Part shown: piece by piece, positions 85-14,041 of the stretch
Layout of the letters: each line of letters starts with the position of its first letter
How positions within the stretch are numbered: position 1 is the first letter of the stretch
From: Gemmata obscuriglobus
GTDB taxonomy: Bacteria; Planctomycetota; Planctomycetia; Gemmatales; Gemmataceae
DNA length: 32,000 nt
Assembly: GCF_008065095.1 (NCBI RefSeq)
Contig: NZ_CP042911.1
Location: forward strand, 2,010,001-2,042,000
Reading direction: 5' to 3'
The notes under the pieces: generated by a model
The model's input: the letters and a program-made list of their open reading frames with translations, nothing else
The model's database searches: none
What the model was told of the DNA's origin: nothing
Program-made: the position numbers and the translations under genes

Positions 85-1707
85 TTAGAAATCGTCGCCG
101 AGGACTTCGCCGCCCGCCGGTGAGAGCAACGCGCCGAGCGTCTTGTCACTGATGCCGTCCGCGATGAACCGCACCGAGCCGTCCCAGAGCAGCGCCTGGA
201 ACCCGCCCTTAAACTGACCGCCGAACTTCTTCTTCAAGTCTTTGGGAAGCTCCTTTCCAGGGAGCATGACATCGTCGGGCTTCGTCCAGACGACGGGATC
301 GGCCGCCTCAACCACTGCCAGCGTGTTGGACGTACCGTCGGTGATAAAAACCAGAGTGGTCGCCAGCGGGGGCATCGCCTTCGGCCCGATCACCATTTGC
401 AGGTTCGTGTAGCCCGGCTTACCCGGCTTCTGGACCGGAGCATAGATGTTGGGCATCTTCTCGATCAGCTTCTTGTTGTTCTCGGAGTCCCACGGCTCGT
501 CGAGCTTGAACTGCTTGTACAGCGCGTCCTGCTCGAGGTACGGCAGGAGGGCGACCCGCCAGCTCAGCAGCGGTTTGTCGGTCGCTTTCGTGAGCCTGGT
601 GCCATTCGCCCCGGTGCCGTGAATCGGAATCCACGCGTTGCTGTCGTGGAAGTTGTGCAGCGCGAGGCCGATCATTTTTAGGTTGTTCGACACCTTCATC
701 CGCGCGGCGGCCTCGCGCACTTTCTTGGCCCCTTCCACCACCATTGTGCCGAAGTCAAAGTCGGCCTTGTAGTCGGCGACCAGTGTGACGTCCGAGCCGC
801 TCACCTCCAGCTTCGCGCCCGCGAGGGCGCGGTCGGCCTCCTTCACCGCTGCGAGCAGCGGGCCGAGGTCCTCAGTGCCCTGACGCTTCAGGAACTTCGC
901 GATCTCGTCGGTTGCGACTTTGATGAACTCCTGACCCTTGTCCTTCGCTTTGCCCGCAGCATCGGCGTCGGCGAACGCCGCGCGCCCGGCAAGGACGAGC
1001 GTTTTGTCTTTCAGGTTCCCGGTCACGGTTACGGCCCGTGCGGCGAGCAGCGGGCCAACATCGCCCATCTCGCGGCCGTTCTTTAGTTCGTTAGGCAATT
1101 TGTCGAGCTGGACGTGGGCGAACAGCGTGTGCCCCGCGGCGGCCTTTGACAGGTCCGGGGTGAGCGGCCAGCCGGCGCGGTCCTTCGCGTACCCGTCGAG
1201 GTACTTTTTCCGCAAGCTTCGGGTCAGCACCACGAGCGTTTTGTCGTCCGGGAAGTGCGCGTCCGCCGTGGGTGAAACGATGTAGCACCCGTCCGCGTCC
1301 GGCTCCGTGCCCTGTTTGATTCCGAACGCCCCGTTCTTGGGGATCGCAGTGTTGGCCTTCACGATCAGGACGAGTTGCGGCCCGTCGCGCTCTGTCACGT
1401 CGGTCACGCAGACCGTCACGGCGTCGACATCGGACGGCTTGAAACCGGTCTGACTGGCGAACCCCTTCTCGACCTCGTTCCACTCGGCTGCGCCACCGGC
1501 CTTCGTGAACGCTTGCCTGATTTCTGCGAACAGGGCGCCGTCGCGGATCTGCTTTATGTCAACGTGCGCGAAAGCGACGTAATCGGATTTCACCGCCGTA
1601 GGCGGGGCGGACGGGTCGGGTGCGGCTTCCTTCTTGCGACACGCCGGCACAACGGTCAGCCCGAAGAGCAAGAGGCCGAACGGCACCAGGAACGACCGGC
1701 GGAACAT
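85..1707 (-). CDS. Lipoprotein with a C-terminal DUF1559 (H-X9-DG type) domain and no prepilin-type leader
   Basis: 540-aa ORF. N-terminal signal plus lipobox (LTVVPAC). The C-terminal third carries typical DUF1559 strings: [46 protein letters not shown], and [16 protein letters not shown] near the C-terminus. Confidence 0.85.
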   Translation of the reverse strand: [540 protein letters not shown]

Positions 1708-1746
1708 GACGCTCCTCCGTTTGGGGAAGGGATCACGAGGCGAAAC

Positions 1747-1986
1747 TCACCGCTTCAATCGCTCACGCACGGACTCCAGCACCGACTGCTCGTCGGGGAA
1801 CGTTCCGGTTTGGAGCTTCGAGTAGATTAACTCGCCGTTAACCGTGACCTCGAAGCACCCGCCGCCGGCGGGTACGAGCGTCAGCCCCTTCACTTTTTGT
1901 TTCAGACTCGTGAGCAGTGTGGCCGCCAGACTGACGGCTTTGGGCTCGTACCCTCAGAGCGAGCAGTACTTCAGTTCGATGTTCAT
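1747..1986 (-). CDS. SelW/SelT/SelH (Rdx) family selenoprotein, 79 codons, with in-frame TGA (Sec) at 1954-1956
   Basis: Manual translation from ATG 1986 gives MNIELKYCSL[TGA]GYEPKAVSLAATLLTSLKQKVKGLTLVPAGGGCFEVTVNGELIYSKLQTGTFPDEQSVLESVRERLKR, with stop TGA at 1747-1749. It has a CxxU motif and the GGxFEVxxNGxLIxSK...GxFP signature of the Rdx fold. GAGGAG lies about 9 nt upstream of the ATG. Confidence 0.85.
1912..1947 (-). promoter_or_regulatory. Candidate bacterial SECIS stem-loop downstream of the in-frame UGA
   Basis: On the mRNA strand: GAGC-CCAAA-GCCGUC-AGUCU-GGCGGC-CACACU-GCUC. That is a 6-bp upper stem (one G-U) with a 5-nt loop containing GU, closed by a 4-bp lower stem. It begins 6 nt after UGA, and the apical loop is about 21 nt from UGA. 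Confidence 0.4.
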
Positions 1987-2044
1987 TAACGTGTTCTCCT
2001 CGTTCGCGCCGTGCGAACGGGAGAATTGTAGGCACATTAACGGC

Positions 2045-2072
2045 GAACGCCCCGACTTGCGCCGGGGCGTTC
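2045..2072 (-). terminator. GC-rich 10-bp hairpin between the anti-sigma stop and the SelW-like start (possible attenuator or terminator)
   Basis: gaacgccccg (2045-2054) pairs perfectly with cggggcgttc (2063-2072), with an 8-nt loop. No clear U-tract follows on the minus strand. Confidence 0.3.
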
Positions 2073-2094
2073 GTTATTGACCAGAGGGAGGAAC

Positions 2095-2844
2095 TCAGGC
2101 GCCAGCCACACCCCCGCCGCGGTTAGCAAGGAGAAATGACTCGAGCCCGCTCGGCCCGCCGGTGTGGACGAACAGATACGTGACGTTTCCGCGGGACCCT
2201 TGTTTCACGAGTACTTGGGCCCGAGCGTGTGAACTGCTCACCTCGGGCACGTTCTTGAGGTTGAAGCCGCTGTCGTGTGGGAAGACGTAAACCACCGCGA
2301 ACCCGCCGTCCGTGCGGCTGCGGAACACGAGCACCGGCACGTCGCGCCCTTGAACCGTCTCGTGACCGCGGTAGGTGAGCAGGTCGTAATCGAACGGCAG
2401 CGGGAGCCGGTCTGGCAACCTCTGCGCCGCCAGCCACCGTTCGGTGCTCTCTTGCTTGTTCGCGGAAAGCTCGCCGTTGCGCTCGACCAGATGCGACACG
2501 TCGAGGGCGGGCCGCGTGTTCGAGATGACCCCCGCACCGATACCGATCAGGAGCAGCGCCGCAGTGGCCATCGCGGCGTACTGGTACACCTTCCGACGAA
2601 GTACCTCGCCCCGCTTGCTCGCGGCGTGCGCGACGAGCTTGCCCCGCAGGCCCGCGGGGACCGGGACGTTCACCATCGCGCGCCCCACCGCGCGGTCGAA
2701 TGAGGCGATCGCGCGGGCGTCCGCGGCGCACGCCGGGCAGGTCGCCAGGTGTTGGTCGAGCGGCGCCGTAACGTCCGCGCCGAGTTCGTCGGCCACTTGG
2801 CGCCGCATGCGGAGGTAAAATTGTGCGTCGCGGCAGTCCATCAC
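2095..2844 (-). CDS. Anti-sigma factor (zf-HC2 type), single-pass membrane protein
   Basis: The N-terminus has the zf-HC2 pattern (CRDAQFYL...HLATCPACAA). One TM helix (AAMATAALLLIGIGAGVI). The start (GTGATG) overlaps the stop of the upstream ECF sigma gene. Confidence 0.8.
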   Translation of the reverse strand: MMDCRDAQFYLRMRRQVADELGADVTAPLDQHLATCPACAADARAIASFDRAVGRAMVNVPVPAGLRGKLVAHAASKRGEVLRRKVYQYAAMATAALLLIGIGAGVISNTRPALDVSHLVERNGELSANKQESTERWLAAQRLPDRLPLPFDYDLLTYRGHETVQGRDVPVLVFRSRTDGGFAVVYVFPHDSGFNLKNVPEVSSSHARAQVLVKQGSRGNVTYLFVHTGGPSGLESFLLANRGGGVAGA

Positions 2845-3386
2845 GTCACCTTCTTCGGGCCGTCTCCTGAGAGGGCCGGTTGTTCCTGGTCGGCGCCGTC
2901 GGGCGGTGCCAGTCGCGACCGGAGGTACGCCTTCCCGCGGGCCAACCGCGACATCACCGTTCCGATCGGCAGTTCCATCTGATCGGCGATGTCGCGGTAG
3001 CTGAAGTCTTCAAAATAAAACAGAATGATCGGCGTTCGGAACGTTTCGTCCAGGTCGTTCAGCGCCTGCTGCAGTTTCGCCGGATCGATCTCGGGCATCT
3101 CGTCGGCCGAGCGCCCCGGCAGATCGCCGACCGCATCGAGCGGGACGACCCGGTGCCGCTTCTGGTCACGGACTTTGTGCAGGTACAGGTTCCGCAAAAT
3201 TCGGAACAGCCAGGCCCTGGCGCGATCGAGTTCGCGTAGCTGCGGCAACCGGGCGAGTGCCTTACCGAACGTCTCTTGCGTGAGGTCTTCGGCGTCCGAA
3301 GACGACCCGCTGAGCCGGTAGGCGTACCGGTAGAGTGCCTCGTAGTGGGCGTCGATCAACTGGTGCAACTCACCGTTCGACCCCAT
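2841..3386 (-). CDS. ECF-family RNA polymerase sigma-70 factor
   Basis: 181 aa. Sigma region 2 (YEALYRYAYRLSGSSSDAEDLTQETF) and region 4 HTH (FSYRDIADQMELPIGTVMSRLARGKAYLR). GAGGAG sits upstream of the ATG. Confidence 0.9.
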   Translation of the reverse strand: MGSNGELHQLIDAHYEALYRYAYRLSGSSSDAEDLTQETFGKALARLPQLRELDRARAWLFRILRNLYLHKVRDQKRHRVVPLDAVGDLPGRSADEMPEIDPAKLQQALNDLDETFRTPIILFYFEDFSYRDIADQMELPIGTVMSRLARGKAYLRSRLAPPDGADQEQPALSGDGPKKVT

Positions 3387-3836
3387 ACGCGATCCTCACT
3401 CCTCTACGAACCCACTTCCCGGCGTTTATTCCCAGCGGCAGAGAAGAAGTTCCTGTTCTCGTCCGGTGACTTCGCGTCCAGAACGAATTACGCGCGTTTG
3501 TTGTATTTCGTTGCGGGGCAACGAGACTCAAGAAGAACAGAGACGCCGCTCGAAACGGGAAAAATTGGGTCGACCGATTTTTTTTGGGAATAACCTTGGC
3601 GGGTTCGTATCTATGTGGGCGTGGGTGCTGCGACGCACCCGCAACTTGTAACATTCGATCCCTCGGAAATCATGAGCCTATCAGGGTTTGTGATGAATTC
3701 GTTGGGATCGAGTGAGCTACCGGTTGCGAAGGGGCGTCGGGTATCCAACAAAACAGAAGCCCGCGTTCCGGGATGCCCGGGGCGTGTCGAGCCTCTCTGT
3801 TGTTCCCACCAGTGTCACCGTTTTTGGAGAATCCCC

Positions 3837-3941
3837 ATGAAGAAGATCATCGCGATCCTGGTCGTTGCCCTGAGCGTCACCGCGGTTGTTGGCTGCGGCG
3901 GCACCAGCGCCACCACCGGCGCCCCGAGCACCAAGAAGTAA
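3837..3941 (+). CDS. Mini-lipoprotein (34 aa)
   Basis: MKKIIAILVVALSVTAVVGCGGTSATTGAPSTKK has a signal helix plus a VVGC lipobox. GGAGA lies 7 nt upstream of the ATG. Two short GC hairpins follow; the first is at 3948-3963. Confidence 0.55.
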   Translation: MKKIIAILVVALSVTAVVGCGGTSATTGAPSTKK

Positions 3942-4077
3942 GTCGCTGCCCGCTTATGCGGGCCGAACTTCTGAGAGGGTCGGCCGGATTCGTCCGGCTG
4001 GCTCTCTTGCCATTTCACGCCGGCTCGCGACACTTCCTCCGAACGCACACGCTTTCAATTTATCCCGAGGGCTTCTC

Positions 4078-4200
4078 GTGAGTCGCACCCTTGCCTACGT
4101 TTTGGTTTTTGTTTTGACCGTTAGTGCGATCGGGTGTGGTGGGGGGCGTGAGCGCGGCAAAAACAGTGACTTCGATCGGCCACAGCCGCAGAAAAAGTGA
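4078..4200 (+). CDS. Mini-lipoprotein (40 aa, GTG start), paralog-like to 3837..3941
   Basis: (V/M)SRTLAYVLVFVLTVSAIGCGGGRERGKNSDFDRPQPQKK has a signal helix plus an AIGC lipobox. GAGGG lies 6 nt upstream of the GTG. It shares the GCGG junction and the KK C-terminus with the neighbouring gene. Confidence 0.45.
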   Translation: MSRTLAYVLVFVLTVSAIGCGGGRERGKNSDFDRPQPQKK

Positions 4201-4245
4201 GCGCAGGTAAGCCGATGTACCGGTTCGCGGACCGGCACGCTCGCG

Positions 4246-5664
4246 TTACGCCAAGATCTCTTCCACCACGTTGCCTTTTACGTCGGTCAGCCGCTCGTCC
4301 TTGCCGTTGTGGAAGAACGTCAACTTCGTGTGGTCAAAGCCGAGCAGGTGCAGAATAGTGGCGTGCAGGTCGTGGACGTGGGCGCGGCCCTCAATGCCGT
4401 TGAGTCCGAACTCGTCCGTTTTGCCGTGCGTGAAGCCGCCTTTTACGCCGCCGCCGGCCATGAGCATGGAGAAGCCGTAAGGGTTGTGGTCGCGCCCGCT
4501 CACTCCCTCCGTCATCGGGGTGCGGCCGAACTCGCCGCCCCAGATCACTAGTGTGTCGTCGAGTAACCCGCGCTGCTTCAGGTCGCGGATCAGTGCCGCG
4601 CTCGGTTGGTCGGCGCGGAGGCACATCTTCGTGTGGTTGCCCTCGATATCCGCGTGGGCGTCCCACTGGCTCCCGGCCCCGCAATAGATTTGCACGAACC
4701 GCACGCCGCGCTCCACCAGACGCCGGGCCAGTAGGCACCGGTGGCCGAACTCTGCCGTCTCCTTGCGGTTGAGCCCGTACATCTCTTTCGTCTTGTCGCT
4801 CTCCTGGGTCAAGTCGACGGCCTCCGGGGCGCTGGCCTGCATCCGGAACGCCAGTTCGTAGGCCGCCTGGCGCGCGGCGAGTTCCGTATCCCCCGCCCGC
4901 TCACGCCGGTGGATCGCGTTGAGTTCGCTGATGAGGCCGAGCTTGTCCGTCTGACGGGCGGTGCTGACATCGGCCGGGGGAGCGAGGTTCAGAATCGGGT
5001 GCGCCCCGCTGCTGAAGTGGGTGCCCTGGTAGGTCGCGGGCATGTAGCCCGTTCCCCAGACGCGGGCGCCGCCGAACACCTGCCCGCTGCCCTCGGTGAA
5101 CACCACGAACCCCGGCAGGTTGCGGTTCACGCTCCCCAACCCGTACAGCGCCCAGGCGCCGAGGCTCGGCCGCCCCGCGAGGATGCTGCCGGTGTTCATC
5201 TGGCACACGCTGCCGACGTGGTTCAGCCCGTCGGCCCAGCACGCGCGGAGCAGGGTGAAGTCGTCGGCGCATTTCGCCATGTGCGGGAGCCAGTCGCTGA
5301 AGTCCATCCCGCTCTGACCGTGCTTTTTAAACCTCCGCTTGCTGGCGAGCAGGTTGTTGCCGCCGGTGCCCATTGGGGTGAGCACCTTGCCGAAACTCGC
5401 GGGCAGCGGCTTGCCGTGCTGCCGGGTGAGTTCGGGCTTGGGGTCGAGCAGATCGACGTGCGACGGGCCGCCTTCCATGAACAGGAAGATGACCCGCTTC
5501 GCCTTCGGCTCGAAGTGCGGCTTCTTCGGCCCCAGCGGGTCGGCAATTTTTGACCCGTCCGAAGCATCGCTCTCTGCAGAGAGCGCGGCCAGTGCCAGCG
5601 CACCGAACCCGCTTCCGGCAGAACGCAGGAAGTCGCGGCGCGAAGAGAACAGGGGAACGTGCAT
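4246..5664 (-). CDS. DUF1501 domain protein (sulfatase-like fold) with Tat signal
   Basis: 472 aa. Twin-arginine leader SRRDFLRSAGSGFGALALA. Typical DUF1501 strings: FLFMEGGPSHVDLLDPKP, IWGGEFGRTP, HNPYGFSMLMAGGGVKGG. Confidence 0.9.
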   Translation of the reverse strand: MHVPLFSSRRDFLRSAGSGFGALALAALSAESDASDGSKIADPLGPKKPHFEPKAKRVIFLFMEGGPSHVDLLDPKPELTRQHGKPLPASFGKVLTPMGTGGNNLLASKRRFKKHGQSGMDFSDWLPHMAKCADDFTLLRACWADGLNHVGSVCQMNTGSILAGRPSLGAWALYGLGSVNRNLPGFVVFTEGSGQVFGGARVWGTGYMPATYQGTHFSSGAHPILNLAPPADVSTARQTDKLGLISELNAIHRRERAGDTELAARQAAYELAFRMQASAPEAVDLTQESDKTKEMYGLNRKETAEFGHRCLLARRLVERGVRFVQIYCGAGSQWDAHADIEGNHTKMCLRADQPSAALIRDLKQRGLLDDTLVIWGGEFGRTPMTEGVSGRDHNPYGFSMLMAGGGVKGGFTHGKTDEFGLNGIEGRAHVHDLHATILHLLGFDHTKLTFFHNGKDERLTDVKGNVVEEILA

Positions 5665-6023
5665 GGAACTTCTCGGGGGCAGCAGCCGGGAAGGCTTCCC
5701 CCGTTTTACCCTCTGTAACCGGGCGTTGCATCAAGAGTTTTTGCGTTTTTGATGGGATAGCGTTGGCAGTTGTTGGTGAATCTGCGTAACGGCGTGAAAA
5801 AACGGTGATGAATCGGGGTGGGCGGCGCGGTAAACTCTGCTCCGAGATTCCGGGTACGGTCTGATGCCCTCCCGCGGACGCCTCCCGCTCACTCCCACCA
5901 AAACGCTGCCAGCTTTGGTGTGACTCCTGCCGTCACAGAGTCCGCGAACGGCCGGGCACCGGTCGTTTGTTCCGTTTATCACAGACGCGCCCGTTCGCAC
6001 ATCGGGCAAGGAGCGGTTAGAGG

Positions 6024-6815
6024 ATGTCGGAACTGTCCGAACCCACGGAAAACGCGTTCGGTTCGTCACCGCCCCCGAGCGCGCTGGAGTCGCCGTCCCT
6101 CTTCAGCCCCGGGGCGACGGAAGAGGCGGCCACGGCTTACGAAGTCAAGTTCCTGCTGACCGAGGCCGAGGCGGCGGAAGTCGCCGCCCGCGTTCACGGC
6201 CGGCTCGCGCTCGATCCGTACGCGGACCCCGCGATGGGGAACGCGTACCTCACGACGAGCGTTTACACCGACACGCCGAACTTCGACGTGTTCTACCGCA
6301 CCGACGGGTACGACCGCGACAAGTTCCGCGTCCGCCGGTACGGTGCCGTCGGCCCGGTTTTCGTCGAGCGCAAGACCAAGAACGGCGACAAGGTGCGCAA
6401 GCACCGCGCCCGCATCAATCCGGACGACGTGAGCGAACTCGTGGCGAGCGAGCTCAACGGCGAGTGGGCGGGCGAGTGGTTCCACAGCCAACTCCTGCAA
6501 CTGCAACTGAAGCCGGTGTGCCGCATCGCCTACGAGCGCGTCGCGTACCTGGGCACCGCCGACGGCGGCACCGTCCGCCTCACCTTCGACCGCAACGTGC
6601 GCGGGGTGCTTCTGTCCGAGTGGAAGCTGGAGCCCGTTGGCGCCGTGGCCCCGCTGCTAGACCGTGTGGTGTGCGAGTTCAAGTTCCGCAACACGATGCC
6701 GGCGCTGTTCAAAGGGATCGTCGCGGACCTCAAACTGACCCCGACGCCGGTGTCGAAGTACCGGACGTTCGTGCGCGCCACGGGACTGGCCCCGGTGAGG
6801 TCGGAGAATGGCTAA
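6024..6815 (+). CDS. VTC (polyphosphate polymerase/CYTH-like) domain protein
   Basis: 263 aa. YEVKFLL...TSVYTDTPNFDVFYR...RVRRYG...VFVERKTKNGDKVRKHR resembles the VTC domain beta-tunnel pattern. Confidence 0.7.
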   Translation: MSELSEPTENAFGSSPPPSALESPSLFSPGATEEAATAYEVKFLLTEAEAAEVAARVHGRLALDPYADPAMGNAYLTTSVYTDTPNFDVFYRTDGYDRDKFRVRRYGAVGPVFVERKTKNGDKVRKHRARINPDDVSELVASELNGEWAGEWFHSQLLQLQLKPVCRIAYERVAYLGTADGGTVRLTFDRNVRGVLLSEWKLEPVGAVAPLLDRVVCEFKFRNTMPALFKGIVADLKLTPTPVSKYRTFVRATGLAPVRSENG

Positions 6816-7512
6816 GCAGGGGCCGGAGGTTCCGTTCGAGGCAACGACCGAGTTGCCGGCGCTCACGGCCGAAGACATCGCGCTGCGACTCGTGTTCGCG
6901 GCCGGGTTCGGGATCGCGGCCGGGGCGGCGTACTACATCACGCAGCGAAAGGGGCGGGCGGAGTCGGCGTCGTTCGTGGCGACGATGGTGCTGCTGGCGA
7001 TCTTGCTCGGGATGGTGAGCATGGTGATCGGCACCAACATCGCCCGGGCGTTCGCGCTGGTGGGAGCGCTGTCCATCGTGCGGTTCCGCACGGTGGTCGA
7101 GGACACGCGCGACACCGCGTTCGTGATCTTCGCCGTGGTGGTGGGCATGGCGGCCGGGTCCGGGGCGTACCTGGTGGCCGCAATCGGCATCCCGATCGTG
7201 GGTTTGGTGGCGTGGCTTCTTGCGTACTGGGGTCGGAGCGGCGGGGCGCCTCCCCGCGCGACGCAGCAACCGCCGACGACCGTGGTGGTTCGCGTCGGGA
7301 TCGGGGTCGATCCCGATATGGCGCTCGCCGCGGTGTTTGCCAAACACACCAACGCGGCGGAACTGGTCGCGGCCGGAGTCGTGCGGCAGGGGACGGCACT
7401 GGACCTGACGTACTCGCTCCGGTTGCGAACCGGTGTGCCCCCGCTAACGCTCATCAGCGAGTTGAACCGCACGGAGGGGGTTCAAGGGGTGGACTGGAAG
7501 GCCGAAAAGTGA
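6808..7512 (+). CDS. DUF4956 domain membrane protein
   Basis: 234 aa with multiple TM helices. ARAFALVGALSIVRFRTVVEDTRDTAFVIFAVVVGMAAG is the typical DUF4956 core. It overlaps the preceding VTC gene by 8 nt. Confidence 0.75.
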   Translation: MAKQGPEVPFEATTELPALTAEDIALRLVFAAGFGIAAGAAYYITQRKGRAESASFVATMVLLAILLGMVSMVIGTNIARAFALVGALSIVRFRTVVEDTRDTAFVIFAVVVGMAAGSGAYLVAAIGIPIVGLVAWLLAYWGRSGGAPPRATQQPPTTVVVRVGIGVDPDMALAAVFAKHTNAAELVAAGVVRQGTALDLTYSLRLRTGVPPLTLISELNRTEGVQGVDWKAEK

Positions 7513-7524
7513 CCCGGTCGGTGC

Positions 7525-8277
7525 TCACACCTTTCCAAGCACGAGGTCCACGACCCAACAGCCGCGGACGTGTGTCGCTCCCGCGTCGCGGCAGTGGGTC
7601 AGGATGTGCGCGTTATCGCAGCCTGCGTCCTGGAGCGCGTCCGCGAGTATCGGCATCGGGCCAAAATCGCCGGACTCATACACCAGGTTCGAGATGGCGG
7701 TGACCGTACTCGTGAGCCAAGACGGCTGAAAGAAGGGAACGCCGGCTTTTGTCAATTCGGTATCCCCGGACCGTCGTAAGGGGGCCGAGGCAATCATGTT
7801 GACAAATCCCGTCGCTTTGGCGAGCCAGCTCGAAATGGTCGATGCCGGTTTCGGGGCGACCGGCGGAAACGGCCGCCCAACGAGACAGTGGAGCGCGCCT
7901 ACACACCATTGCCGTGTTGCAGAATTCAAACCAGAACCGTCGATTATGTTGATGACCCGGTGAGCCACTTCGTCCGCATCGGCTACCCCAAGCAACAACG
8001 GGAGCGCGGCCAACTCGTCGTCGTAGTCGGGGTTTTGCCTGCTCCGAGCGAGGAGGTCCGCGACGGACTTGCCGACCGTGCTCAATTCAAGGGCGCCGTC
8101 GGCCGCGGCTTCGGCCGCCTGGATCGTTTCTGCTCCGCCGGGTAGCGACATGAGCCACTGATTCTTCCGGCAGCACGCGCAGACGAACAGGCGCAACTTG
8201 CGCGATGAGATCTTGCCTTGCACCCCACGCAACATTTCGCGCGGTTCGGTACACAGGAGCCACTCCGCTTCGGTCAT
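7525..8277 (-). CDS. Hypothetical Cys-rich protein of a Gemmata/myxobacterial paralogous family (C-terminal HVRGCWVVDLVLGK motif)
   Basis: Start chosen at MTEAEWLLCTEPREML (ATG 8277), which forms an ATGA overlap with the ABC ATPase stop. The 57 upstream codons of the long ORF lie inside that gene. C-terminus: ILADALQDAGCDNAHILTHCRDAGATHVRGCWVVDLVLGKV. Confidence 0.7.
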   Translation of the reverse strand: MTEAEWLLCTEPREMLRGVQGKISSRKLRLFVCACCRKNQWLMSLPGGAETIQAAEAAADGALELSTVGKSVADLLARSRQNPDYDDELAALPLLLGVADADEVAHRVINIIDGSGLNSATRQWCVGALHCLVGRPFPPVAPKPASTISSWLAKATGFVNMIASAPLRRSGDTELTKAGVPFFQPSWLTSTVTAISNLVYESGDFGPMPILADALQDAGCDNAHILTHCRDAGATHVRGCWVVDLVLGKV

Positions 8278-9077
8278 GGCGCGTCCCTTAGTTCGGTCAG
8301 CCGGTCCCGGGCCTCGCCCTGAATGAACTGCCGCACACGTGCGTCGTCCGCTTGGGCCAGGCCCGTTGGCGGGCCGTCGTAGAGGATTTGCTTCTCGTCT
8401 GAGCGGAGCCGCGAGCGCGGGTACAGCATTACCACGCGGCTCGCGCACTTCTCGACCGTCCGTAACTCGTGCGTGACGATCACGGACGTGACCGGGCGTC
8501 TGCTCCGGGTTTGCAGGATCAGCTCGTTGATGACGTCCGTCATGATCGGATCGAGCCCGGTGGTGGGTTCGTCGTAGAGCATCACGTCGGGGTCGAGCGC
8601 GAGCGCCCGCGCGAGCCCCACTCGCTTCCGCATCCCACCAGACAGCTCCGCGGGCATCTTGGGTTCGACGCTCGCCGGCAGGCCGACCTCCAGCACACGC
8701 TCGCGCACACGCGTGCTAACGTCCGCTTCCGCGAATCCGCCTTTCGCACGCAGCCCGAACGCCACATTGTCAAACACGTTTAGGCTGTCGAACAGGGCCG
8801 CCTGTTGAAACAGAAACCCTATCCGTAGGCGGAGTTGCGTCAGATCGCGTTCCGAGAGTTTGTGGAGCGGCTTGCCCTCAAACAGGATCTCGCCTTCGGT
8901 CGGTTGGAGCAAGCCGACGATGAGCTTCAGCAGCACGGTTTTGCCGCACCCGCTTTCGCCGATCACGCAAAGCGTGTCCTGGGGCATGATGTCCAGGTCC
9001 ACGCCCTGAAGCACCGTTTGTGCCCCGAACCGAACGGTCACGTTACGCAACCGAACCACCGGCTCTGCGTCACTCAT
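8274..9077 (-). CDS. ABC transporter ATP-binding protein (MlaF/Ttg2A-like)
   Basis: Walker A GESGCGKT, signature LSGGMRKRV, Walker B MLYDEPTTGLD. No permease or substrate-binding gene is adjacent. Confidence 0.9.
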   Translation of the reverse strand: MSDAEPVVRLRNVTVRFGAQTVLQGVDLDIMPQDTLCVIGESGCGKTVLLKLIVGLLQPTEGEILFEGKPLHKLSERDLTQLRLRIGFLFQQAALFDSLNVFDNVAFGLRAKGGFAEADVSTRVRERVLEVGLPASVEPKMPAELSGGMRKRVGLARALALDPDVMLYDEPTTGLDPIMTDVINELILQTRSRRPVTSVIVTHELRTVEKCASRVVMLYPRSRLRSDEKQILYDGPPTGLAQADDARVRQFIQGEARDRLTELRDAP

Positions 9078-9964
9078 TGCCGGCCCCCGAAGTACGCCCG
9101 GTCTCGCGCCTCGTACCCGGTGTAACCGAGAAGGTCATACAGTTCAGAACGCGTTTGCATTTTGGGAAGGCTGCCGGTTTGTGTGCCACTTTGCATCAAG
9201 TCGCGGAGGGTGTCCTCGGCGGCCTTCATTGCCACGCGGAACGCGGTGAGCGGGAACAGCACCAGCCGGTATCCCATTTCGCCGAAGGTTTTAACGTCCA
9301 GGTACGGCGATTTGCCGAACTCGGTCATGTTCGCCAGCAGCACGGCCCCAGGTAGCGCTTTCGCGAACCGCTCGAACTCGTCGCGGGACTCCATCGCCTC
9401 CGGGAAGATCGCATCGGCGCCCGCGTCCAAATACCGCTTCGCGCGATCGAGCGCGTCATCGAAGCCGTTCACCGCCTTGGCGTCGGTTCGCGCCATGATG
9501 ACGAAGTCCTTATCCCGCTTTGCCGCGACCGCCGCCCGGATCTTGGCGGCCATCACTTCGGCGCTCACAACCGATTTCCCGGAGAGGTGACCGCACCGTT
9601 TGGGCATCTCTTGATCTTCAAGGTGAATCCCCGCGGCCCCCGCCGCCTCAAACATGCGGACGGTTCGCTCAACGTTAAGTGATTCGCCGAAGCCCGTGTC
9701 CGCGTCACAGAGCAGGGGGAGGGTGGTGGCTTGCGCAGTGAGCTGGGCGGCTTGGGTGAACTCGGTGAGCGTAAGTAACCCGATGTCCGGGACGCCACTA
9801 CCTGCGGAAAGAGCCCCCCCGGAGAGGTAGACGGCCGAAAATCCAAGTCGCTCTGCCATTTTCGCAACGAGCGGATTGAACACACCAGGGAGGGTGAGAG
9901 GGCCGCTCATCCACGCCGCCCGCAATCTCGCCCCTGGCGAGAGGGAATTCGTGTCGAAAGACAT
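9074..9964 (-). CDS. Isocitrate lyase/PEP mutase superfamily enzyme (methylisocitrate lyase-like)
   Basis: DADTGFG and EDQEMPKRCGHLSGKSVV (KRCGH active-site loop). Start taken at MSFDTNSLSPG (ATG 9964), because the 37 upstream codons look non-coding. ATGA overlap with the ABC gene at 9074-9077. Confidence 0.8.
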   Translation of the reverse strand: MSFDTNSLSPGARLRAAWMSGPLTLPGVFNPLVAKMAERLGFSAVYLSGGALSAGSGVPDIGLLTLTEFTQAAQLTAQATTLPLLCDADTGFGESLNVERTVRMFEAAGAAGIHLEDQEMPKRCGHLSGKSVVSAEVMAAKIRAAVAAKRDKDFVIMARTDAKAVNGFDDALDRAKRYLDAGADAIFPEAMESRDEFERFAKALPGAVLLANMTEFGKSPYLDVKTFGEMGYRLVLFPLTAFRVAMKAAEDTLRDLMQSGTQTGSLPKMQTRSELYDLLGYTGYEARDRAYFGGRQ

Positions 9965-10128
9965 TGGGTTTCTCACGTGGCGAACAAGTGAAATCCGCAT
10001 TATCGCAGTGCGTCTGCGAACACGAAGGAAGAAATTTCGGAAAGCTGAGATTCGTCGGAAGTCCTTTGAGGGCAATGTGTCCAGATCGATGTGTTAGCCG
10101 GTGAGCGGGGCGGAGATTTACCGCACCC

Positions 10129-10324: not shown

Positions 10325-10398
10325 GCGCGTGTAGCTCAGTTGGTACGAGCACGTCGCTGATAACGACGGGGTCCCTGGTTCAAATCCAGGCACGCGCA
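10325..10398 (+). tRNA. tRNA-Ile (anticodon GAT)
   Basis: Cloverleaf folded by hand: acceptor GCGCGTG/CACGCGC, D arm GCTC..GAGC, anticodon stem CGTCG/CGACG with loop CTGATAA, T arm CCTGG-TTCAAAT-CCAGG. 74 nt. CCA is not fully encoded. Confidence 0.93.
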
Positions 10399-10418
10399 CC
10401 TGTTTTTAAGTATATGGC

Positions 10419-10491
10419 GGGGGTGTAGCTCAGTTGGTAGAGCGCCTGCTTTGCAAGCAGGATGTCAGGGGTTCGAGTCCCCTCTCCTCCA
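10419..10491 (+). tRNA. tRNA-Ala (anticodon TGC)
   Basis: GGGGGTG acceptor with the G3:U70 pair, anticodon stem CCTGC/GCAGG with loop TTTGCAA, T arm AGGGG-TTCGAGT-CCCCT. 73 nt. There is one U-U mismatch at 6:67 in the acceptor stem. Confidence 0.9.
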
Positions 10492-10603
10492 CACCACTGA
10501 TGGTAGCCTGATCTGATGCCTGGGAAGTGGTGACAGGTGTCTTAAGCCGCAACGACCCGCAAGCGATTTGCGAAAAAGTGAAGAAGAAAAATTGCGGGTC
10601 AGG

Positions 10604-10631
10604 TTGACGAGCGAATGGTCGCCGCTAGTAT
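10604..10631 (+). promoter_or_regulatory. Second near-consensus sigma-70 promoter, between tRNA-Ala and the 23S rRNA, with an A-rich upstream tract
   Basis: TTGACG (10604-10609), 16-nt spacer, TAGTAT (10626-10631). It is preceded by gaaaaagtgaagaagaaaaatt, which looks like an UP element. Spacing and -10 form match the promoter at 10129. Confidence 0.5.
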
Positions 10632-10809
10632 TGAGGATGTCGCAACGTTATGTTTGATAGGACGTTGCGACAAATTGATGTGATGGTGGTCGAAAGTTGG
10701 ACTTGCATCATTCGACAGGGTGAGTAAGTCGTTTGGGTTGCTGTCCTACTTCAAATGAAGTGGTTAAGTAGCCCAATATTCGCGGACAGTTAAGCTGCCC
10801 GTTAGTAGC

Positions 10810-10821
10810 GGTCTTTGACAA
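10810..10821 (+). promoter_or_regulatory. boxA-like antitermination element in the 23S leader
   Basis: GGTCTTTGACAA matches the rrn boxA core GCTCTTTAACAA (recalled from memory) at 10 of 12 positions. Confidence 0.45.
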
Positions 10822-11076
10822 CGTGGTGAAGCAAGTTAAGTTGCATCTTCGTCGGTGCCGCTTGCGGGTCGTCTGGGTGCGGCGTCGCTCCTTCGGGTGC
10901 GGGGTCGGGTCCGGCGGGTTGCGGGTGGTGGCGATCAGTGACAAGACGAGACACGAGCCTTAGAAGTGGTTGAGATAATCTCCGTGCGTGGCACATATCG
11001 GTGCCGCCGCGGAACTAGTGGTGATGCTCGACTGACGGTACCCGCTTGCCGGCGGGTGCGGTGGCCTGGGCAGTGC

Positions 11077-13826
<2,750 letters not shown>

Positions 13827-13924
13827 GCACTCCCCACTCCACCGCCCGTGTCTTGATACACATGCGACTTGACGCTTCACCACGTTGTACTGATACACCG
13901 TCGGGGTAACCCGACACGAACCAT

Positions 13925-14031
13925 GCCGGTGACCATACCCAAACGGAAACACCCGTTCCCATTCCGAACACGGCCGTGAAACGTTTGAGGCCGATGGTAG
14001 TGCGTCCAGCGCGAGAGTAGGTATCGCCGGC
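13925..14031 (+). rRNA. rrf: 5S ribosomal RNA (short, about 107 nt)
   Basis: GCCGGTGACCATACCC...CCCGTTCCCATTCCGAACACGGCCGTGAAAC...GGTAGTGCG...GAGAGTAGGTATCGCCGGC. The terminal helix GCCGGTGA/TCGCCGGC closes the molecule. Confidence 0.9.
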
Positions 14032-14041
14032 TAATTACAAT

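Follow-up and report, generated by a model that had tools for sequence, protein, structure and literature searches.

A stretch of 32,000 nucleotides from the Gemmata obscuriglobus genome (contig NZ_CP042911.1, positions 2,010,001 to 2,042,000, hereafter the window) carries on its minus strand, at 1986..1747, a 79-codon frame that is interrupted at codon 11 by TGA. Overall, our analysis of this region indicates that it probably encodes a 79-residue SelW-like selenoprotein with an Rdx fold, with UGA-11 specifying selenocysteine (Sec), a reading that we hold at a probability of about 0.93. The evidence that we observed directly comprises the frame itself, its family membership, conservation of the UGA codon among relatives, constraint and covariation at the RNA level in a hairpin that follows this codon and, in relatives, an adjacent selD gene that has an in-frame TGA of its own.

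An interrupted frame that encodes a complete Rdx domain

Translation of the minus strand from 1986 to 1747 gives MNIELKYCSL, an internal stop (TGA 1956-1954), then GYEPKAVSLAATLLTSLKQKVKGLTLVPAGGGCFEVTVNGELIYSKLQTGTFPDEQSVLESVRERLKR and a terminal stop. A preliminary description of this DNA had proposed that a 79-codon read-through product is cut after 10 codons by this TGA and that GAGGAG lies about 9 nt 5' of the ATG. Our translation reproduces that product, and the sequence places GAGGAG at 2001-1996 with a spacing of 9 nt. The same description stated that there is no open reading frame (ORF) here, which is slightly too strong, as a mechanically called ORF of 48 aa does exist in the same frame (GTG 1893..1747). 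Other ORFs that overlap the site on either strand (1844-2080, 1375-1830 and 1634-1825 on the plus strand, 1838-2035 on the minus strand) gave no Pfam signal.

Hidden Markov model (HMM) comparisons, which used the product with Cys substituted at the UGA codon, place it firmly in one family. Specifically, the Pfam Rdx model PF10262 is matched with E = 1.7e-20 and 73.4 bits against a cutoff of 22.6, residues 2-75 falling on model positions 1-74 of 74, and the NCBIfam model TIGR02174 (CXXU_selWTH) is matched end to end with 73.9 bits (cutoff 34.2). The preliminary description had named these two models as a check on the conceptual translation, and both scores are above the curated cutoffs. Eight solved Rdx-fold proteins were also matched by sequence with E values from 5e-11 to 1e-3 (2LJK, 3DEX, 2FA8, 2P0G, 2OBK, 2OKA, 2OJL and 2NPB), among them MIEN1 (C17orf37; 2LJK) and mouse SelW (2NPB). 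The YCxxC motif of the solved proteins (e.g. YCEPC and YCTQC in 2LJK, 3DEX and 2FA8) aligns on YC8-S-L-[UGA11], and thus the UGA codon occupies the second redox-active position. This is also the usual N-terminal position of the motif in the Rdx fold, as had been suggested for the CxxU, and the proposed family signature (GG-FE...NG-L..SK...G-FP) is common to the product and the solved Rdx proteins. Homology to these eight structures predicts a thioredoxin-like beta-alpha-beta-beta-beta-alpha fold.

The UGA codon is conserved in every relative compared

We scanned genomes, one per species, and found relatives encoded in 286 of them. The best 80 loci were compared, and together with the window sequence they form a set of 81 sequences. 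Most of these loci come from Gemmataceae, Frigoriglobus, Fimbriiglobus, Singulisphaera and Pirellulales, and a few are from bins that appear to be mislabelled. The tblastn matches begin at residue 1 in 80/80 loci. Codon 11 is TGA in 81/81 sequences, with TGC, TGT, TAA and TAG never seen, and the start codon that precedes it by 10 codons is ATG in 74 and GTG in 7. Codons 5' of the UGA vary synonymously (TAC 61 and TAT 19; TGC 64 and TGT 16; GAA 46 and GAG 24), and conservation of the protein extends to either side of the UGA, with residues 12-19 (GYEPKAVS) being highly conserved as protein. An alignment of orthologs, which had been put forward as a way to check the prediction, thus shows TGA throughout and no Cys codon, with conservation on both sides. 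A pseudogene or a sequencing error is excluded by the invariant TGA, the constant start position and the synonymous variation upstream.

The CxxU motif is kept in 80/81 orthologs. The exception is locus L062 (Planctomycetota metagenome-assembled genome (MAG) Centralia_MAG_388), where TGA is present at both positions (L062:1501-1536, TAC TGA GCC ATG TGA), giving a possible UxxU motif. This second TGA is seen in a single MAG and could stem from an error in sequencing or assembly.

Public databases present this gene in another form. The nearest match among database proteins (P0001) has 60 aa, is named 'SelT/SelW/SelH family protein [Gemmata obscuriglobus]' and starts at Leu20 (CTG), 3' of the UGA. 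On CP025958.1 the locus that encodes it agrees with the window at all 381 aligned bases and has matching neighbours, with ECF sigma, anti-sigma and DUF1501 genes upstream and a DUF1559 gene downstream. Among database homologs, of which we listed at least 120 (P0001-P0120) and aligned 21, the deposited length is 47-69 aa in every one of the 120 listed (NCBI, JGI, ENA and Logan gene calls), and 21/21 aligned homologs begin at or near the YUG of codon 20, which is part of the hairpin stem described below. The gene is therefore not missed by gene callers but is systematically truncated with loss of its catalytic CxxU motif; the earlier statement that callers would miss it or mark it as a pseudogene was inexact, since it is deposited as the truncated protein of about 60 aa.

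One could take these deposited annotations at face value, so that TGA 1956-1954 is a true stop, the product has about 60 aa and starts at CTG Leu20 or GTG Val32, and the upstream 10 codons are non-coding or decayed. The unanimity of the GenBank, JGI and other gene calls speaks for this, as does the YTG found at codon 20, which is a possible TTG start in 53/81 sequences. We nevertheless regard it as very improbable. The upstream 10 codons, their start and their frame are conserved in 81/81 with a synonymous pattern that is hard to reconcile with a non-coding leader, a decayed remnant is not expected to hold TGA specifically in 81/81, and the short form would have neither strand beta-1 nor the CxxC/U motif, which occupy residues 2-11 in the Rdx models and the PDB homologs. 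Conservation of YUG at codon 20 has its own explanation in the hairpin, as U28-G29 of its stem fall on this codon.

A conserved hairpin follows the UGA codon

A bacterial selenocysteine insertion sequence (SECIS) was expected just 3' of the UGA, and the preliminary description had drawn a two-tier stem-loop with a GU-containing apical loop at 1912-1947. This element folds as described (minimum free energy (MFE) -14.0 kcal/mol, z = -2.0), with its GU loop 22 nt from the UGA, but the lower tier is not a conserved feature; its outer pair is mostly G-G and only 69.8% of its cells are paired over the 81 sequences, so we rejected it as such. The upper stem-loop alone has an MFE that 0/200 shuffles equal. 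Since single-sequence thermodynamics could not decide the matter, comparative analysis was adopted, with positions counted from the U of UGA as 0.

RNAalifold on a 105-column alignment of the 81 sequences returned a single structure in which +20..+24 are paired with +32..+28 around the loop G25-U26-Y27 (pair counts in Table 1). Overall 403/405 cells of this core are paired, and compensatory changes comprise CG to UA (4), CG to GC (1) and GC to CG (1). For example, locus L024 has two adjacent pairs flipped together, with two amino acids altered. When the 3' partners were moved by 1-3 columns as a slid-register control, pairing dropped from 80.6% to 27-51%. The outer two pairs of the 7-bp Gemmata stem are lineage-specific. 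In 66/81 sequences 2 bp or more are added to the core, and two registers occur, contiguous if +33 is G or continued beyond a bulged A33; A is present at +33 in 33/81 orthologs, and in 25 of these 33 the stem continues past this single bulged A.

Codon usage in the hairpin points the same way. Synonymous-codon entropy at A17-V18-S19-L20-T/A21 is 0.43, 0, 0, 0.92 and 0.13 bits, and at the remaining 18 well-conserved codons with 4- or 6-fold degeneracy it ranges from 1.08 to 2.17 bits, a complete separation with a one-sided rank probability of 1/C(23,5), or about 3e-5. Val18 is always GUC (78/78) and Ser19 is always AGU (76/76), where other conserved Ser codons are UCG or UCC. Leu20 is always YUG, with CUG in 27/81.

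A published bacterial SECIS model (PMC13188914 Fig. 2A) gives a loop of 3-9 nt, an upper stem of 4-16 bp, a G within the first two loop nucleotides, a UGA-loop spacing of 16-37 nt and an MFE at or below -7.5 kcal/mol. The window hairpin lies within each of these limits (GUC loop of 3 nt, 7 bp, G-U, 22 nt and -9.3 kcal/mol), and the energy limit is reached in 80/81 orthologs. Together with the covariation and the suppressed synonymous variation, this supports the SECIS that the preliminary description had predicted.

Table 1. Features of the SelW-like locus in the window, base pairs of the hairpin core, and loci with conserved neighbours.
Feature	Position or loci	Strand	Remarks
Predicted SelW-like (Rdx family) selenoprotein coding sequence	1747..1986	minus	79 codons plus terminal TGA 1749-1747; 81/81 orthologs collinear
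Start codon ATG	1984..1986	minus	start exactly 10 codons before UGA in 81/81
Shine-Dalgarno-like GAGGAG	1996..2001	minus	9 nt before ATG; predicted to be paired inside leader hairpin
CxxU redox motif	1954..1965	minus	Cys8 (TGC 1965-1963), Ser, Leu, Sec11 (UGA 1956-1954)
Candidate SECIS upper stem-loop GCCGUCA-GUC-UGGCGGC	1922..1938	minus	7 bp; MFE -9.3 kcal/mol, z = -3.5
Family-wide core CGUCA-GUY-UGRCG	1936-1924	minus	apical loop 1931-1929, G and U invariant
Two-tier stem-loop, lower stem GAGC (1947-1944) / GCUC (1915-1912)	1912..1947	minus	present in Gemmata; lower stem weakly conserved
Structured intergenic leader	1987..2100	minus	114 nt; MFE -56.3 kcal/mol, z = -6.4
Membrane anti-sigma factor with ZAS motif H-x3-C-x2-C (HLATCPAC)	2095..2844	minus	directly upstream; syntenic in 16/80
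ECF-type sigma-70 family factor	2841..3386	minus	Pfam Sigma70_r2 and Sigma70_r4_2; 4-nt overlap with anti-sigma gene
Pair C20-G32	+20/+32		CG 75, UA 4, GC 1, UG 1 (81 sequences)
Pair G21-C31	+21/+31		GC 78, CG 1, unpaired 2 (81 sequences)
Pair U22-R30	+22/+30		UA 55, UG 26 (81 sequences)
Pair C23-G29	+23/+29		CG 81 (81 sequences)
Pair A24-U28	+24/+28		AU 76, GU 5 (81 sequences)
Loci with adjacent selD	L013, L014, L017, L020, L021, L024, L028, L036, L038-L040, L046-L049, L052, L053, L058-L060, L062, L066, L070, L073, L076		
Loci with sigma/anti-sigma genes	L002-L004, L010-L012, L016, L020, L024, L028, L029, L032, L035, L044, L074, L077		

A Sec-containing selD adjoins the gene in relatives

In 25 of the 78 loci with enough flank, selD is the next same-strand gene after the SelW-like gene, with a gap of 3-317 nt (median 81) and, in most of the 25, a position at about 1740-2900 of the locus. 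The selD neighbour scores 367.5 bits with TIGR00476 against a cutoff of 125. All 25 have an in-frame TGA at the catalytic position (...DYASCAG-U-AGKL...), which is followed at +30..+44 by a hairpin of their own, GC[G/U]CAG-GUN-CUG[C/A]GC, with G-C to U-A covariation and a GU-initiated triloop as in the SelW-like gene. Since this TGA and its covarying hairpin recur in a second gene, the planctomycete clade of relatives, judged from its gene sequences, clearly appears to decode UGA as Sec. Two additional downstream ORF clusters were set aside as apparent alternative-frame artefacts of the GC-rich selD region, as judged by position only. In two Pirellulales MAGs the same-strand selD is replaced by a convergent fusion of a pyridine-nucleotide-disulfide oxidoreductase with a SelD-like part, which adjoins the SelW-like gene (L050:2209-3231 and L064:684-1883; TIGR04369-like at 287.6 bits, which is under the cutoff, and TIGR00476 at 265 bits).

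In regards to the Gemmata window itself, its tRNA genes are tRNA-Ile and tRNA-Ala only, with tRNA-Sec not found, and no sel gene is present among the ten ORFs scanned in 85-10075. The neighbourhood of selD in Fimbriiglobus ruber contains no other sel gene and no SelW-like gene.

Stem-loops located 3' of stop codons can stimulate read-through, and the full-length product could in principle be made by near-cognate decoding of the UGA as Trp, Cys or Arg, promoted by the hairpin and without any Sec pathway. That the Sec machinery of G. obscuriglobus is known to us from a published table leaves some room for this explanation, to which we assign only a very small probability. The site is the catalytic Cys/Sec position of a family with established bacterial CxxU selenoproteins; if Cys were tolerated there, TGC or TGT would be expected among the 81 lineages and none is seen. 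In addition, the hairpin, in whose loop G-U is invariant, agrees with the SelB-type SECIS model, a Sec-type selD adjoins in relatives, and sel genes are reported for G. obscuriglobus itself, with selA, selB, selC and selD all listed (PMC4807772 Table S8).

How Sec insertion would proceed, and what weighs against it

If the SelW-like gene is decoded as a selenoprotein, then established knowledge of bacterial Sec insertion allows the following steps to be outlined by analogy, from the binding of SelB and the insertion of Sec to the redox reaction of the product. Translation would start at ATG 1986, and the hairpin 15-33 nt past UGA codon 11, which lies inside the coding sequence and displays G-U in its 3-nt loop, would act as a bacterial SECIS. 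SelB-GTP carrying Sec-tRNA(Sec) would bind the G-U loop as the ribosome approaches, selenocysteine would be put in at UGA-11 in place of termination, and translation would run on to the terminal TGA at 1749-1747, which has no such hairpin and would serve as a normal stop. Cys8-x-x-Sec11 would then lie where the first helix of the thioredoxin-like fold begins. The most likely cycle would be between selenol/thiol and selenenylsulfide forms, as for a small thiol-dependent oxidoreductase.

Several observations weigh against this reading. The score with the NCBIfam equivalog NF041051 (SelTWH_Campy) is 73.5 bits, under its cutoff of 88; by sequence the product is outside this narrow Campylobacter-type equivalog and belongs to the broader Rdx / SelW-SelT-SelH family. 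At the RNA level, folds wider than the hairpin are no more stable than shuffles (z = -0.48 for 61 nt and +0.28 for 111 nt), the 5-bp core that is conserved has little stability by itself (-2.6 kcal/mol), and the hairpin is inside the coding sequence, hence its conservation is in part at the protein level. There was also no Rfam SECIS match in 1700-2100, whether the gathering score or E up to 10 was applied; the Rfam models sX6, BSnc120 and H19_2 were dismissed with scores far under their gathering thresholds. Rfam is not known to contain a general model for short hairpins of the bacterial SECIS type, and we give this null result little weight. G. obscuriglobus is not named among the best 120 of 8000 SelD matches obtained with a Gemmataceae SelD query. 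Finally, the sel genes of G. obscuriglobus rest on one table of one paper (PMC4807772 Table S8), and the tRNAscan results of the same paper (Table S3) give 0 tRNA-Sec for this species where Table S8 gives a selC id.

Upstream leader and sigma/anti-sigma genes

The leader between the SelW-like gene and the gene upstream is strongly structured (Table 1). It contains a perfect 13-bp hairpin at 2073-2044 that has no U-tract, a -10-like hexamer TACAAT at 2030-2025 that was found by comparing relatives, where TAnAAT recurs, and a hairpin at 2039-1987 that pairs the GAGGAG Shine-Dalgarno sequence. Hairpins similar to those of the leader recur in relatives. A promoter and terminator scan of 1500-3600 returned nothing over shuffle expectation and no promoter-like site. 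The leader sequence suggests that the SelW-like gene may have its own promoter and possibly translational control.

This leader, which pairs the Shine-Dalgarno sequence, and the YUG codon inside the hairpin could together suggest that the 10-codon frame serves in regulation as an upstream ORF or leader peptide, with termination coupled to re-initiation at the YUG and the hairpin acting as a translational regulator, but this is the least probable of the alternatives, given that both parts invariably share one frame and combine into one complete Rdx domain, that GYEPKAVS is conserved as protein and not as a spacer would be, and that CUG is a poor start.

Directly upstream of the leader are genes for a zinc-binding anti-sigma (ZAS) factor and an extracytoplasmic function (ECF) type sigma factor. 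Identification of the anti-sigma factor comes from weak model matches, under their cutoffs, and from the ZAS motif read from the translation. The ECF sigma gene is syntenic in 14/80 loci with 65-99% identity, and at least three loci (L020, L024 and L028) combine sigma, anti-sigma, SelW-like and selD genes. Locus L044 was also flagged for this combination, by a match that fell on the SelW-like gene itself. The location of the sigma / ZAS anti-sigma pair hints at redox-responsive control.

Relation to known selenoproteins

CxxU proteins of the SelW-like type rank among the most abundant selenoproteins of prokaryotes and have few Cys homologs, with 48 Sec versus 7 Cys forms in the Sargasso Sea data and 427 versus 56 in the Global Ocean Sampling (GOS) data (PMC1088965, PMC1794560, PMC2398784). 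The SelW-like family has been known since 2004-2005, and the Gemmata gene is a new, mis-annotated member of it. Like the bacterial SelW-like selenoproteins already described (PF10262, formerly PF05169; TIGR02174), it has the same domain of about 75-80 aa with an N-terminal CxxU and the same SECIS placement right after the UGA inside the coding sequence, and Sec forms dominate likewise, with 81 versus 0 in the present set. What sets it apart is that it belongs to a planctomycete clade (Gemmatales, Pirellulales and Isosphaerales) whose public annotations are truncated and in which the gene is linked both with a selD that contains Sec and with genes for an ECF sigma factor and a ZAS anti-sigma factor. 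We found no report of a Gemmata or planctomycete SelW-like member, or of a selW-selD linkage, in the searchable literature, and the comparative-genomics papers that we checked make no mention of the selD and ECF sigma / ZAS anti-sigma linkages.

With mammalian SelW (2NPB), MIEN1 (2LJK) and the bacterial Cys-type Rdx proteins, the product shares homology over nearly the full domain, the same motif position and the family signature. The bacterial Rdx entries in the PDB (3DEX, 2FA8, 2P0G, 2OBK, 2OKA and 2OJL) differ in having Cys, a length of about 105 aa and additional terminal segments. Sequence identity of the product to all these proteins is modest. Eukaryotic SelW uses a SECIS in the 3' untranslated region along with SBP2 and eEFSec.

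The SECIS of Escherichia coli fdhF is the paradigm of a SelB-binding hairpin. The Gemmata hairpin resembles it in following the UGA immediately, inside the ORF, and in having a G/C-rich stem with a small apical loop that starts with G-U (CA-GUC-UG here, GCA-GGUC-UGC in fdhF). The bulged A33 of 25 orthologs also recalls the bulged U of fdhF. However, the two have no sequence homology, the loop in the window has 3 nt and not 4, and its G-U, at +25/+26, is one codon further from the UGA than in fdhF.

These results leave the existing picture of selenocysteine decoding unchanged. Their practical consequence is for annotation: for this gene and for more than 100 of its relatives in the databases, what has been deposited is a fragment of 47-69 aa without the catalytic CxxU, an artefact that is systematic and easily fixed, and because of it counts of the Planctomycetota selenoproteome are too low. 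The clade also offers a clean natural dataset for bacterial SECIS elements embedded in coding sequence, with 81 sequences, no Cys form, frozen wobble positions and two helix registers, and the linkage to the Sec-containing selD and to the ECF sigma / ZAS anti-sigma pair is a testable lead on the function of bacterial SelW-like proteins.

As a speculative extension, which we consider unlikely, the Gemmatales SelW-like protein might be part of a selenium-handling module and not a free-standing antioxidant. An ancestral cluster would have comprised the ECF sigma factor, ZAS anti-sigma factor, SelW-like (Sec) and selD (Sec) genes; the CxxU protein would deliver or reduce selenium for selenophosphate synthetase, and the module would answer a thiol, redox or selenium signal via the zinc-binding anti-sigma factor. 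The basis for this is gene order, namely selW-selD adjacency in 25/78 loci, the sigma/anti-sigma pair in 16/80 loci plus the window, and both in at least three loci. If true, bacterial SelW-like proteins would thereby gain their first assigned function.

An unlinked rRNA operon elsewhere in the window

At 10325-14032 on the plus strand the window has tRNA-Ile(GAT), tRNA-Ala(TGC), 23S and 5S genes in a row, with no 16S rRNA gene detected within the whole window. This row is an unlinked rRNA operon that retains its spacer tRNAs. The gene that adjoins it upstream, at 9074-10075, is of the PEP-mutase family and is on the opposite strand.

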